NCBI GenBank assembly: GCA_024137785.1
Contig: JAHRHZ010000002.1
Location: 13,429,947 to 13,493,946 of the forward strand
Origin: Ginglymostoma cirratum
Lineage: Eukaryota
DNA length: 64,000 bases
Direction: 5' to 3'
Both the position numbers and the translations under genes were made by a program. The notes beneath the pieces were generated by a model, which ran no database searches, was not told the DNA's origin, and saw only the letters and a program-made list of their open reading frames with translations. Position 1 is the first letter of the stretch, and every line of letters starts with the position of its first letter. Shown here piece after piece: positions 10,210 to 41,747 of the stretch.

Positions 10210-10245
10210 CAGCATCTTTAAGTTTTTCCTGCAGTTTTCCTATTT
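10210..10245 (-). CDS. Exon 22 (36 nt): EIGKLQEKLKDA
   Basis: atattcatttctgatttcag|AAATAGGAAAACTGCAGGAAAAACTTAAAGATGCTG|gtgagg. Confidence 0.88.
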
Positions 10246-12157
10246 CTGAAATCAGAAATGAATATAAACATAAGTTACGTGCAGTACACAGGCTGAGTAA
10301 AGATGATATGTTCTTTGAAAACTACTGATATTACAAAAATATTATGGCTACTTTGGAAAGCTATCTAAAGTTGTGGCTAATTTTTTTTTTCAATTGTGAA
10401 AAGGTGAAGCCGGGGAAAATAGCTCCAGGTCGGCTTCGACTGACTTGTGCAATGACCAAAGAGAAACTTATGCTTAATTCTGCCTAATTACTAGTAATAA
10501 GCAGTGCACATGACATGGAAGCTGAGCAGTGGTCCACCCGATCCCACTGCCATGTCACTGACCACTTCGAAGAGTATTGTGCCACCATAAGGGTAGGCAT
10601 ATTACTTGCACGAACTGGAGGTTTGACTTGGCAGGCCCTGAGGACACACAGCCCAACTGGCTGGTTGGTGTGAATCTTCAGATTGGGACATAGCGATCAG
10701 ACATTTTAAATGACCCGATTGGACTTTTTGTTTGAGATTTATGATTTGTAAGTTGTCTCGAAGTACAACAGACTAATGGTGTTTTGGCGAGTCCCTCAAA
10801 TTGTCAGTGGTGCCTCACCCTAGGGGCAAGTTGGAGATCTCTGTGTGACAGCAGAGGAGGTCATGACATTGCAGAAAGACTCTCCTAGTTTCAAATTTCT
10901 CATCTTTCCCACAGTGATTCTTTCATGTGAAAATCATATGCTGGTTCAGTAAATGTTCACTCTACTCTTTCGTAGTCTCACTGCGTTATCAGGATTAAAA
11001 GTGTAATTAGCGCAAGTAGTGAGACAAATATGATCCTGATATACCACAAAAAATGTTTGATTAGTTTCCTTGATTGTCTGCTCTCTTGCTTTCCTCTGTT
11101 TACTTAAAACCTATAGCTAATTATTGATTAACAAATAGCTAAAACTTCAAACTAGTGTCGCAGTGCCACAAATATCACAGAACAATTCCGACTTGCATTA
11201 CTTTCATAGAAATTCGACGTGGAATAGATGGATATTAAATTGTTTTTAGCAATTGCATTTTGTACTATCATCAAAACATCAGACCTTTATATATTTTAGA
11301 CCTGGGTAGTATGTCGCGTTCGCTTCAAGTTTTTCCACAGACCTATTACGTTTTGGCTTGCACTAAAATTGGAAATTCGCTATAAATTCTTTCATTCCAA
11401 TACGGCTCTGTAGAATACCTTGAACAAAAGCTAAATACTTTGAAGTCATTTTTACAAAATCATGAAAGCTAAAAGTTCATGTTGAATCTTTGCATGACTG
11501 TTTCATAAATTGCACATATCTGTATCTCTCATTATGGCATGTTAAACGTGTTAAACTGCTGAGCCTCTGGGGCACACATACGCTAAGTTCTCAAGAAAAT
11601 GTTATCTTTTTCACATTGCATTGCAAATTTTATAGTGTTGTGAAATGCCTTAATTACTGTCAAAAAAGAAAACACCCTGGCATAAAAGATTTGTTTTCTA
11701 AAATGAAGAGTTTCATTCCTTCATATTATATATTTGTTGAAGGACTTAAAATAATGTCAGAAATGATTTTTTTGCTTTTTCTTTCACTTGATATTTCTTT
11801 CCATCTCTTCCATCTTATGTGTATGAATTTGGATTGATTTCAATATTCCAATTTCTAGGGGAAAAAACCTTGCCAGTCTTGGTTGTTATTCTTCAACCCA
11901 GTTCATTAAGGAAACAAACAATTGCATCCTTTGTTTACTGAGGCCGCATGCTATCTGTGCTGTGCTAAAATAACTTGTTAATTTCAGCACCTAATGCCAA
12001 ATGCATTAGGAAACCAATGGCCCCATGCAGGAATTGTTGCTTTTGCTCATTCCAAACTGCTTGCAGATATGACTGACTAGGTGAGTCTAGTCTTGTTGTA
12101 ATGCAATTTTAGAAAATTAGAGAAGTGTAACAATTGAAACGTTGACAATATTAAATA

Positions 12158-12282
12158 ATGATGTTGAGGTGCCAGCGTTGGACTAGGGTGGACAAGGTCA
12201 GATATCACACGACACCAGGTTATAGTCCAACAGGTTTATTTGAAAACAGAATCTTTCGGAGTTTCACTGTTACTTCAGGTGT
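12158..12282 (-). mobile_element. Penelope-derived terminal repeat fragment with degenerate hammerhead core
   Basis: Contains gacaccaggttatagtccaacaggtttattt; minus strand reads cctgaagta...tccgaaag. Confidence 0.5.
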
Positions 12283-13443
12283 TATGAGAGGATGCTAGAT
12301 TGTCCTTTTGGTATGTATTTAAAGAACAAAGAACAAAGAAAATTTCAGCACAGGAACAGGCCCTTCAGCCCTCCAATTATACATGAGATCAAGAGATTGG
12401 CACTGATTTTGTGATGTCTGCATACCCTTTAAAATGTTTCTTTGGATTCCTCGTCAGTCTCAATGCACTGACCACGTACTAGTTATATTCGAAGTTTCAA
12501 CTTCCGGTGGGAAGTTTCACACCAGTCTGGAACTCGCCAAAAAGTGCTTGACCCTGAGTTACAGTCTTAGACTTTGGCTAGATCTGACCGAATAACTTGA
12601 ATAGTTAGCCAGCAAAGGCTAGAGGAGTTCAACTCTGAATTAGATTCCTGTTAAACAGACTGTCCCAGTGCTGCATATCATTCCATAGTCATTAGATGAT
12701 ATATATTGCACCTGAAAATGCACCACCGGAATTGCCACATGAACTTCACTCTGGCATGTGTTCAGGACATCACATATAACCACTCCACCAAACCCCTTTG
12801 ATGCCCCAACACCGCATCACCTCCAATCTGGGATCAAATTAACTCCAATCCTCAGACCTTTCCCGAATTGTCGACCACCTTGTGCTCCCCTTATTCGACC
12901 TTACCAGCCCCATCTATACCATCACCAATCTGCCACCCGATTTACTCTTTCTCTTCTTACCCTATCATTCTCCTGAACCTGCCATCCTACCAACTCTGCC
13001 ATCCTATCAATTCTTGCACCTTATGGACCTAGACATCCTTCCCCCTTTACATACTTGCATCATCCTATCTCCTTACCCACTTAACAGTCTTGCAGTAATT
13101 CAGAGACATACTGAAAAACTTTCCATTTTTCATAGTGTTCAGGGTGAGGGTAAATCAATTAATTTTCCAAAATATGACTGTTCTTGCTATAAAAGGGACA
13201 CGTCTTCGCTGGAACTGGATTAAAGCACCTTTCTGCATCAGGTGTAATGTGGTGATACAGGTGATATTGTACTTCAGGTCCATGACATTGTATTGCTGCC
13301 TTATTCATCAGATGGTATTATAATAATGCCATGGACATGACATGTAGATATCTTGCGGTGATCATTGACCAGAAAATTTCGTAAGTAGTTTGCCACATTG
13401 TGGAGGCTTGGGAAACTACATACATATATTTTAATTCATTTAC

Positions 13444-13470
13444 CTATGTCTTTTACAAGCAGTTGTCTCA
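13444..13470 (-). CDS. Microexon 21 (27 nt): MRQLLVKDI (repeat C)
   Basis: ttgataactttcatttcag|TGAGACAACTGCTTGTAAAAGACATAG|gtaaat. Versus the 27438 copy: two synonymous changes and one L>V. Confidence 0.9.
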
Positions 13471-14329
13471 CTGAAATGAAAGTTATCAAGTTAATGTATT
13501 AGTTATAGTTGAATTTGTGAAAGAACGTACAAAGTAACTTAATTGTGAATATAATATTCAGTTTGTATATTAATTCATTCTCGAAAATTGCAGTTTAAAT
13601 GTCACATTAATGATTTTCGATTATACATTTTATGAAAGAAATATTTTACAACTCAGTACAGACTTGGAAATTAGATTTCAGGGTATGTGAACAGTATATG
13701 TGCTGTCACATATACTCTCAATGTAAACTCTTAAGGTAGGTATGAATGTTGTATCAAATCCACTAAACATTGACACATTAGTTATGGAACAGTATTTGCT
13801 CTTCACTGATCCCACAAAACAGCATGTCAGAAAGGAAGTTCTTGCTGAGAATAATACTGCTTTGTAATTTGCAAAAATAAATGTTAAAAAGGAAAGAAAT
13901 TGAATCCCAATAGGCTGAGCCTGAAAATCGGTCTCATATCTAGTAGGAAAGTGACTTTTCCTCAGTAATTGTTAATCAGTACATCTGCGAAATCCAGGAC
14001 ATTACATCATCTATGCTCACTACGTATCTATGTACTCGATGTATTATTCGAAGACAATGATTGAACATGGTAGTAGAAAGTGATTACTGAATTTACACAA
14101 TGGTGGATTCATATTTGTAATCAGTAGACCAAAACATGAAATTACAGCTGCGTTCTTTCAGTGAAAGTTTGTGGAAAAAAAAACTGACTTATTTCATTTT
14201 TGATTTTGCAAAGAAGGGAATATCTCAGGTTTTGTAGTGCAGATATGCATAGAGAATTAAAATAGCTGACAGAAAATAATCCTGTATTCTGAGAAAAAAA
14301 TACACAAGTGCATATGATATGCTTTGACT

Positions 14330-40319: not shown

Positions 40320-40550
40320 TGTTTTTATCAACCTGTTCAAATGTGAACACATCTAGAACAGGTGGAACTTTAACCTAGACATTTTGCCCTGTAGGTAGGG
40401 ATAATACAAATGTGCTATAAGAATTTTAGAGATATAGTTACTTTACCCAATCTGTTTTGACATGCTCTGACACAATTCCAAAGGCAGGGACTTGATACCT
40501 CAAGTTCTGGTGAAGAGGTAGGGACACTACCACCGTGCCATGAGACCCCT
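40320..40550 (-). mobile_element. Two tandem copies of a short tRNA-derived SINE
   Basis: Minus strand ggcacggtggtagtgtccctacct (A-box-like); a diverged second copy at 40322-40420 and a third near 32960-33066. Confidence 0.6.
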
Positions 40551-40894
40551 ATATAATGCAAAATTGTCCGTAGGTTAAGACGATTATATTTGCACATTGT
40601 TCTGTGCTCGCAGGGATTTTTAGAACATATTCATTTCTGATCCGTTTTCTGAGTCTGAGTAAGTTTCTTTGTTGCATTTAATGATTGTTTAAGTAGAATA
40701 TCAATGGGTATGCATGAATTCATGAGTATTGACGTTTGAAGTTTCTTTCTGTTGGCATGGAGTTTAGTTTAATTCAAATAACGAATAAAGACAGCTTGAT
40801 TGCTTGAACCTACGATATAGATTTCATTGACATTACAATGTTCAAGAAGTGACATACATGTAAACAGTGCTATGAACTGTCTGATGTGACTTAC

Positions 40895-40921
40895 TGGTTT
40901 TTTGCAGAAGTTCCTTGCATT
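40895..40921 (-). CDS. Microexon 8 (27 nt): ECKELLQKT (repeat A, EC exon)
   Basis: ttatgctattttaaag|AATGCAAGGAACTTCTGCAAAAAACCA|gtaagt. Paralogous to the exons at 28548 and 15230. Confidence 0.88.
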
Positions 40922-41720
40922 CTTTAAAATAGCATAAATATTATGATAATACAAAATAAAAACAACAGAGAAAAGATTTGTGAAATGTGGCACTATTACA
41001 GAACAAATGTTTATTTTAAGATACAATTCAATCAAAGCAACTTCTATGTAGCAGTTAAACAGAAAACACAATGGTAACTCGTTTCATTTTCCTTTCCATG
41101 AGACATTTGCAAGAATATACTTCTATTGTTTTTTCACGTGAAATGTGAAGGAAATTCTTATTTGACAAATTTATTAGAGTCATTTGAAAACGTATGGTTA
41201 ACGTAGATAAAGGGAAACTTTAGAGATAGTCTTTGAGTTTGTAAATATAGCAGATGGAGCTACCACACGAAATAAAATGTTTTCATTCAGTAGAGCACTC
41301 TTCATCAATAATGTAAAATTCTGGAAAATGTATTGTAGGAAATTTACTACATTTTTGGTGAACAATATTCAGTTATCATTAAGTAATATTTCTGATTATT
41401 CTTCTTCTGCAATGAACGAAACAATTGCATTTTCACGAGCACACTGTCACCAGTACGAAATTTACTGCATTGCAAGATGAAGGCTGGCATTTGTTAATTT
41501 TGTGAATTGGGCATGCTCTAAACTAATTCAATATTAAATGACATAATAAAGATGGAGCTAAAATGTAATAGCATTTAAAAATGATCCTTTTTTGCCATTC
41601 AGTCTACTTTGTCATCATGCAGCTTACATATCCACACTAAATAATGATCTTAAGTGGTTGTTCTTTGTTATCAACGTAGTGCAATGTACTAGTAACCATA
41701 CATTACACCAGGTAACTTAC

Positions 41721-41747
41721 CATCATATTTTGACGGTTTACCCTTTC
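41721..41747 (-). CDS. Microexon 7 (27 nt): GKGKPSKYD
   Basis: ttgttcgcttgttttactag|GAAAGGGTAAACCGTCAAAATATGATG|gtaagt. Confidence 0.8.

Follow-up and report, generated by a model that had tools for sequence, protein, structure and literature searches.

Butyrophilins place a few heptads of coiled coil before their B30.2 domain, and the tails of the chicken BG proteins are coiled coils encoded by phase-1 micro-exons (PMC5938342, PMC4046983). The micro-exons of chicken BG are 21 nucleotides (nt) long, one heptad each, and number 13-36 per gene in the B12 haplotype; the genes also possess IgV and membrane exons, the tail consists of heptads only, and a soluble form of it (zipper protein) regulates actin-myosin (PMC5938342, PMC4046983). 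In human BTN3A, the juxtamembrane regions were modelled as parallel coiled-coil dimers (PMC10665462). Here we describe a gene of Ginglymostoma cirratum, examined from a window of 64,000 nt (positions 13,429,947 to 13,493,946 of contig JAHRHZ010000002.1, hereafter C2, assembly GCA_024137785.1). The window (1..64000) is the middle fifth of this gene, which lies on the minus strand at C2:13,331,711-13,660,608 and spans ~329 kb. It is composed of a 132-nt head exon, at least 121 phase-1 micro-exons (mostly of 27 or 36 nt) and a terminal B30.2 exon, and its predicted product has ~1,500 residues, ~1,300 of which (1318), mostly helical, would be contributed by the micro-exons. We read this product, with a probability of about 0.6, as a soluble, hugely expanded butyrophilin tail: a jointed rod with B30.2 heads that would act as a tether or spacer.

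The analysis was centred on a cassette of three micro-exons (EC, MRQ and EI), which a preliminary description of this stretch had reported as a three-fold duplication with copies about 13 kb apart. All nine exons were located in the window, and a fourth cassette lies outside it:

40895..40921, minus strand: EC exon of cassette 1, 27 nt
38828..38854, minus strand: MRQ exon of cassette 1, 27 nt, its Met codon split by the preceding intron
36972..37007, minus strand: EI exon of cassette 1, 36 nt, or 30 nt if an alternative donor 6 nt earlier is used
28548..28574, minus strand: EC exon of cassette 2, 27 nt
27438..27464, minus strand: MRQ exon of cassette 2, 27 nt
26014..26049, minus strand: EI exon of cassette 2, 36 nt
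15230..15256, minus strand: EC exon of cassette 3, 27 nt
13444..13470, minus strand: MRQ exon of cassette 3, 27 nt
10210..10245, minus strand: EI exon of cassette 3, 36 nt
Window positions -5486, -7552 and -12722, minus strand: cassette 4, to the left of the window

All nine exons lie on the minus strand, a point absent from the preliminary description, with ag..gt boundaries and phase 1 at both ends; the EC-to-EC distances are 12,347 and 13,318 nt. The three-fold count is too low: beyond the window there are the fourth copy, just past the left end, and further copies in upstream paralogous chains.

The nucleotide differences between copies 2 and 3 were exactly as first described: two of 27 nt in the EC exon (CTT/CTC and GCG/GCA) and three of 27 nt in the MRQ exon (TTA/GTA, GAT/GAC and ATC/ATA). 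The EI exons, which had been left out of that count, differ at 13 of 36 nt, with mostly non-synonymous changes (4.5 synonymous and 7.5 non-synonymous). The synonymous bias that had been claimed is still found when the three exons are pooled, with the proportion of synonymous differences (pS) above that of non-synonymous ones (pN) in all three pairs. Pooled values were pS 0.49 and pN 0.13 for copies 2 and 3 (Fisher p 0.004), pS 0.87 and pN 0.39 for copies 1 and 2 (p 0.0003), and pS 0.66 and pN 0.37 for copies 1 and 3 (p 0.04). Over EC and MRQ of copies 2 and 3, just four of ~10 synonymous sites have changed despite the introns no longer aligning; the numbers are small, and they hint that silent sites in these exons may be under splicing constraint.

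The intron flanks had been said to be dissimilar, and in comparisons of 300 nt, 17 of 18 fell inside the null distribution from 377 random pairs, far from the case in which flanks would be as similar as exons. The one exception (copy 1 against copy 3, after EI; score 33, p ~0.003 before correction for 18 tests) is a 48-column patch which is out of register. When degenerate patterns were run against the whole 4.36-Gb assembly, EC gave four matches, MRQ five and the controls none; these counts are lower bounds, and every match was on the minus strand of C2. A dispersed-repeat origin of the 27-mers, named at the outset, next to flanks as similar as the exons, as a finding that would speak against the duplication reading, is rejected on these grounds. 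Neither is it easy to credit the broader suspicion that the 27-mers are chance matches, repeat pieces or relics of a dead gene, which we hold to be very improbable. The window is indeed rich in dispersed repeats, and several exons of the collinear chain described below have weak splice sites; against this, the EC and MRQ patterns are limited to the array genome-wide, pN is well below pS, 113 exons are open in frame (after pre-filtering), the B30.2 exon is intact, and conserved counterparts of the protein occur in catsharks and a ray.

Homologues of the B30.2 exon were found in Chiloscyllium plagiosum (XP_043533989, 86% identical) and Scyliorhinus canicula (XP_038671249.1, 945 amino acids, 59%), and in a tree the B30.2 of this genome groups with those of carpet sharks. 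The catshark RefSeq model XP_038671249.1 has the cassettes spliced, in the same order as here. Models from S. torazame, S. canicula and the ray Narcine bancroftii cover the remaining gene, including the 39-residue head, and those of the catshark and the ray start at a matching Met-Ala-Ala head. Compared with the catshark copies of the same rank, copies 1 to 4 are identical at 20, 28, 27 and 21 of 30 residues, respectively, whereas copies 2 and 3 of this gene share 23 of 30 with each other, less than either shares with its catshark counterpart; copies 2 and 3 differ by L/V and by E/G, and two catshark species keep both differences copy-specifically. Since the copies match catshark copies of the same rank, the cassette duplication predates the split of this genome's lineage from catsharks. 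Gene conversion among the copies is ruled out by the same rank-specific orthology, the copies not having been homogenised. This gene has four copies and the ray model two. Among paralogues the cassette is also the best-kept block: in an alignment of nine proteins (isoform pairs included), 14 of 19 invariant columns fall in one cassette.

We conclude that the cassettes are coding micro-exon blocks, tandemly duplicated within one gene at a time before the divergence of carpet sharks from catsharks. The idea of an old intragenic duplication under purifying selection is borne out by pN below pS, by flanks at background level, by patterns free of repeats and by the catshark orthologues. The latter are a stronger proof than the count of silent sites; the preliminary description was sound on the cassettes and on the coding nature of the chain, while the encoded product, the 329-kb extent and the additional copies went unnoticed.

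In scans of flanking DNA, phase-1 exons of 27 and 36 nt continued far to both sides of the window. The chain collinear with catshark proteins comprised 118 exons, reduced to 113 by dropping five doubtful ones (62 of 27 nt, 31 of 36 nt, 14 of 24 nt, and six others including two of 21 nt), with a median gap of 2.2 kb and a longest gap of 16.6 kb; exon profiles added eight, for a total of at least 121. The 113 exons join in frame without a stop, the candidates having been pre-filtered for internal stops. A chain of 117 exons against catshark proteins had 666 of 1019 residues identical (65%) and a score of 3312, compared to scores of 214-649 and identities of 35-41% in three controls (plus strand, reversed and block-shuffled). 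The chain-building script overfits, in that the controls still yielded 37-75 exons, and finer details of the upstream chain should not be relied upon. A scan blind to both frame and reference picked 34 exons of 27 nt and 18 of 36 nt among 115 candidates on the minus strand, and three and one, respectively, among 63 candidates on the plus strand.

The head exon (C2:13,660,477-13,660,608, ~167 kb past the right end of the window) encodes the 39-residue head, which is acidic and polar and contains three tyrosines in this genome; its acceptor is strong (score 8.8), lies 14 nt before the ATG, and is in phase 1 and open. A genome search with this exon returned only itself, from one candidate. The terminal B30.2 exon (~525 nt, 173 codons) is intact and lies ~98 kb past the left end. 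As to expression, two small contig runs on window positions 9,900-29,800 had depth mainly on repeats with no listed joint at a cassette exon, and for the B30.2 exon with its 3' flank no RNA source was listed; both attempts were uninformative.

The two main exon classes have a regular design. Codons 2, 5 and 9 of the 36-nt exons are hydrophobic in 74%, 87% and 81% of 31 exons, respectively; of the 62 exons of 27 nt, 65% have a hydrophobic residue at codon 4 and 35 have Lys at codon 7. Residue periodicity peaks at 3.5. A 36-nt and a 27-nt exon together encode 12 + 9 codons, or 21 residues, and thus three heptads with Lys at one d position; in our reading of the heptad register, the Cys of the EC exon would likewise be at a d position. 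Cassettes 1-3 follow short Gly/Pro/Ser linker exons, and since the cassettes follow linkers and restart the helix, the rod is taken to be jointed. In a single-sequence AlphaFold model of the catshark protein, of low confidence (mean predicted local distance difference test score, pLDDT, of 55), helices restart at residues 201, 243, 305 and 356, at or just before the catshark cassettes (202, 247, 313 and 370) and after unstructured linkers. RefSeq isoforms of family members, themselves predictions, differ by small blocks (221/230 amino acids; 353-378; 442/451/460), and these would fit the skipping of single micro-exons, as expected. An Atlas search with the cassette region returned generic coiled-coil matches only, all below 0.9.

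The terminal exon matches Pfam SPRY with an expectation value (E) of 4.5e-12. Its best PDB sequence match is BTN3A1 (E 3.8e-21), with TRIM21 at E 4.2e-17, and by fold TRIM21 comes top, level with BTN3A1. In the single-sequence AlphaFold model the B30.2 part has a pLDDT below 35, and with a 12-row alignment a mean of 69. H351 has been named as a phosphoantigen residue of BTN3A1 (PMC7348870); this pocket His aligns to Asn here, at a position placed by reading of the alignment, and as it is not kept, phosphoantigen sensing in that manner is unlikely. A gene of the CCDC7, triadin or golgin type is ruled out by the B30.2 exon, and a type II membrane protein by the lack of a membrane exon after the head.

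As for the origin of the gene, a butyrophilin on the same contig has an IgC exon, a membrane exon, five 27-nt phase-1 exons and B30.2, and a second shark butyrophilin-like gene shows two such 27-nt exons. Shark butyrophilin-like genes, one of them at C2:20.85 Mb, thus build their tails from 27-nt exons, in contrast to the 21-nt exons of chicken BG. A profile made from the 27-nt exons of the present gene picks four of the five butyrophilin tail exons; in the controls it matched three times in 834 kb of plus strand and not at all in 16 kb of two TRIM-type genes. The butyrophilin-tail reading is preferred because 27-nt phase-1 exons also occur in the tails of shark butyrophilins on this contig. 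According to it, a butyrophilin cytoplasmic tail (27-nt phase-1 exons and B30.2) would have lost the Ig and membrane exons and then been expanded by repeated duplication of exon blocks. The gene would encode a soluble dimer, a parallel coiled coil with two B30.2 heads, whose rod would measure up to ~200 nm if fully helical (1318 residues x 0.15 nm). Such a rod may serve as a long tether or spacer and keep a B30.2-bound partner at a distance; an alternative role would be as a rod along cytoskeletal filaments, as with the BG-derived zipper protein. The conserved cassette could start the zipper and set the pairing after each hinge; its Cys, at d, would lie where one chain is opposed to the other. 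The skipping of single in-frame exons would alter both rod length and register. By feature tests the gene fits none of the three families (butyrophilin, BG, TRIM); it may work like a BG or butyrophilin tail.

Several points weigh against the butyrophilin-tail reading. The splicing is taken from predicted models of other species which are themselves fragments (430, 579, 730 and 945 amino acids), and no full-length model was found among the candidates covered by protein searches limited by length and clustering. Part of what the exon profile scores is generic splice strength and purine richness; nucleotide by nucleotide, no butyrophilin tail exon matched the gene at more than 17 of 27 positions, and the exon comparison covers two butyrophilins and two TRIM-type genes. 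Two of the three head tyrosines recur, to varying extents, in S. canicula or S. torazame, and the ray model keeps none. In the B30.2 tree the family sits on a long branch of its own (13 rows, 100 by the Shimodaira-Hasegawa-like approximate likelihood-ratio test), and in the approximately unbiased test a sister relation to butyrophilins (p-AU 0.71) and one to TRIMs (p-AU 0.66) are both retained, neither being rejected. The trees were quick ones, of 56 rows and then 41 (16 long, redundant or uninformative rows dropped and one added); the family clade includes skate, ray and chimaera, with none of the included bony-fish proteins inside it.

One further explanation is descent of the same soluble rod with B30.2 from a TRIM or other B30.2 gene, through loss of RING and B-box and multiplication of one short linker exon in phase 1; the product would then take part in innate defence, as an adaptor for ubiquitin-ligase TRIMs or as their decoy. 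We consider this rather unlikely, even with the p-AU value and the fold match to TRIM21 given above: ~63 of the 82 B30.2 matches (counted by eye) are on C2, the two examined upstream are TRIM-type, and a 27-nt exon precedes B30.2 in some mammalian TRIMs, but these two TRIM-type genes are devoid of tandem 27-nt phase-1 exons. The last internal exons are 23 and then ~119 nt in the first neighbour, and 234, 23 and then an uncertain 221-242 nt in the second. None of five family proteins matched the TRIM coiled coil, RING or B-box; RING and B-box matches were lacking in all eight scanned, and the TRIM coiled coil in every family protein scanned, whereas TRIM_CC does match the neighbouring gene's 234-nt exon.

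A membrane-bound receptor of the butyrophilin or BG kind, with a giant cytoplasmic tail and with Ig and membrane exons that lie upstream and were missed, would also account for the chain. Chicken BG has such an architecture (PMC5938342, PMC4046983), and ~560 kb of array interior together with the 5' end of the far paralogue lie outside the DNA read. Nevertheless, although C2 holds 11 of 22 butyrophilin IgC matches, none of the 22 is between 13.3 and 15.2 Mb, and no Ig domain matched in the family proteins scanned. A membrane segment was likewise not found in any of eight family proteins (best 19-residue hydropathy at most 1.35, compared to 2.44 in a control butyrophilin), and the two membrane-like exon candidates in the gene span have weak acceptors, one of them being a longer reading of a 27-nt exon. 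We therefore view a receptor as improbable, more so than the TRIM derivation, and retain the butyrophilin-tail reading.

The other micro-exons of the window, from right to left, are as follows:

60784..60807, minus strand: 24-nt phase-1 micro-exon, collinear with the catshark protein
54393..54416, minus strand: 24-nt phase-1 micro-exon with weak splice sites, from the collinear chain
52183..52209, minus strand: 27-nt phase-1 micro-exon with strong splice sites and an exon-profile score of 24, unplaced on the catshark protein
49755..49781, minus strand: 27-nt phase-1 micro-exon, from the collinear chain
47287..47310, minus strand: 24-nt phase-1 micro-exon, from the splice-site scan and collinear chain
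44160..44183, minus strand: 24-nt phase-1 micro-exon, from the splice-site scan and collinear chain
41721..41747, minus strand: 27-nt Gly/Pro/Ser linker exon preceding cassette 1, from splice sites and exon profile
34132..34152, minus strand: 21-nt linker exon, from the splice-site scan and collinear chain
32322..32345, minus strand: 24-nt exon leading into cassette 2, from the collinear chain
25144..25170, minus strand: 27-nt phase-1 micro-exon, from the collinear chain
20739..20774, minus strand: 36-nt phase-1 micro-exon, from the splice-site scan and collinear chain
20136..20156, minus strand: candidate 21-nt linker exon with strong splice sites, filling a 7-residue gap relative to the catshark
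18322..18345, minus strand: 24-nt exon leading into cassette 3, from the splice-site scan and collinear chain
5336..5359, minus strand: 24-nt linker exon, from the splice-site scan and collinear chain
688..708, minus strand: 21-nt linker exon preceding cassette 4, with strong splice sites and a match to the S. torazame protein

Position 41747, where the region initially described ends, is the start of the 27-nt linker exon. A 33-nt candidate at 24357-24325 has strong splice sites and no catshark counterpart, and was left uncounted. At 16115-16678, the ~82 nt on either side of a 400-N gap are near-perfect reverse complements from a common dispersed repeat, probably an assembly artefact or an inverted repeat pair. 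Short (TTAGGG)n tracts at 26541-26595 and 37478-37514 lie ~470-490 nt upstream of EI in cassettes 2 and 1, respectively, in opposite orientations; the tract is common genome-wide, and this is probably a coincidence.

The gene heads a tandem array on C2, from 13.33 to at least 14.76 Mb (~1.4 Mb), beside RPS5 and a putative NRM. The contig also holds 25 of 28 class I matches of the major histocompatibility complex (MHC); a search for the class II family gave no match, and its control was also silent. A second family gene at C2:14.67-14.77 Mb has its own B30.2 (38% identical), 20 profile matches in 100 kb and one cassette, and groups with catshark XP_038672308 and ray XP_069775385. A third member, at C141:2,651,518-2,661,400, has phase-1 exon candidates of 21, 24, 27 and 36 nt and a B30.2 that groups with skate, catshark and chimaera proteins. 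Downstream of the array are a membrane-protein exon, which we take to be nurim (NRM; it had no Pfam match), a RING gene and RPS5. Their order and orientation are those of NRM, RNF225-like and rps5 in a sawfish gene table.

On catshark NC_052158.1, according to the supplement of Verissimo et al. 2023 (PMC10751288), seven large loci on one strand (22.2-26.16 Mb) precede MHC framework genes, NRM, RPS5 and DHX16 among them. One of the seven, LOC119975528, is a cassette-bearing protein found in this analysis; LOC119975529 and LOC119975530 would, from their accession order, be two halves of the catshark orthologue of the present gene. At the matching place, the gene tables of the same supplement are empty over 0.96 Mb in sawfish (7.52-8.48 Mb of NC_067438.1, after NRM) and ~1.8 Mb in white shark (92.35-94.18 Mb of NC_054485.1, also after NRM; PMC10751288).

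Between the first and second genes of the array, at C2:13.69-14.53 Mb, lie one or more chains devoid of a detected B30.2, with 28 + 12 profile matches in 403 kb and seven in five 10-kb samples. This ~0.85-Mb stretch might splice in frame into the 132-nt exon, so that a single transcript would comprise several hundred micro-exons and encode a rod several thousand residues long, the head Met then being an internal start. Compatible with this are the strong, phase-1, open acceptor of the head exon and the upstream searches, in which no B30.2 was found by tblastn in 403 kb or by genome search between 13.33 and 14.67 Mb and no convincing terminal exon was seen. In its 3' part, however, the upstream chain reproduces the 3' part of this gene in the same order, which is what one expects of a tandem paralogue, and an assembly gap (256,265-256,664; C2 position ~13,686,200) is located where its last exon is expected. 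Moreover, 32 kb without micro-exons separate the two, twice the longest gap within this gene; the catshark and ray models begin at the head Met; and the catshark annotation has seven separate loci. A single transcript of this kind is thus doubtful. The same tentative standing applies to a wider proposal, that the ~1.4-Mb array amounts to several hundred 9- and 12-codon exons, with the upstream chain spliced into the head, and that combinatorial exon skipping may tune length and heptad register to give an adjustable molecular ruler for B30.2, a butyrophilin-derived immune or cytoskeletal scaffold so far seen in cartilaginous fish alone.

No paper describing this gene family was found in the literature searched, chiefly non-subscription, and no link to this gene could be established for an 'A33-like' entry in a shark skin proteome (PMC10707392). 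In the elasmobranch MHC, an apparent gene desert of 1-2 Mb would be filled by a conserved coding array. Several shark genome annotations break this gene up or overlook it; short-read annotation is prone to this with such genes, and RefSeq pieces of them are named golgin-, CENP-E-, TRIM39- and A33-like. The gene also offers a tractable system for the ordered splicing of more than 100 tiny exons.

With the TRIM proteins (TRIM39-, TRIM58- and A33-like), the gene shares a C-terminal B30.2, the same MHC-linked cluster and the automatic names of family members; it differs from them in the missing RING, B-box and TRIM coiled-coil matches, and in exon sizes and phases, the exons of the TRIM coiled coil being large and in phase 0. 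The enterophilins of the guinea pig combine a long leucine zipper with B30.2 and have no membrane anchor; they are mammalian and much shorter. An interaction of enterophilin with SNX1 has been described. Their likeness to the present gene is one of architecture (zipper, B30.2, no anchor). With butyrophilins (BTN1A1, BTN2A, BTN3A and the shark butyrophilin-like genes), the common features are short phase-1 coiled-coil exons before B30.2 and linkage to the MHC; in contrast to them, no Ig or membrane exon was found here, at least 121 micro-exons replace a few, and there is a 36-nt exon class unseen in the two butyrophilins examined. Chicken BG and this gene both build a long coiled coil by multiplication of phase-1 micro-exons, in a tandem array by the MHC. 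After chicken BG, the shark gene would be the second instance in which duplication of micro-exons has independently expanded a butyrophilin-like tail. It uses a different code (36 + 27 nt for three heptads) and is built on a far larger scale, with three to four times more exons, and its arrangement is the opposite of that in BG: B30.2 has been kept, and the receptor part, with its Ig and membrane exons, has apparently been lost.

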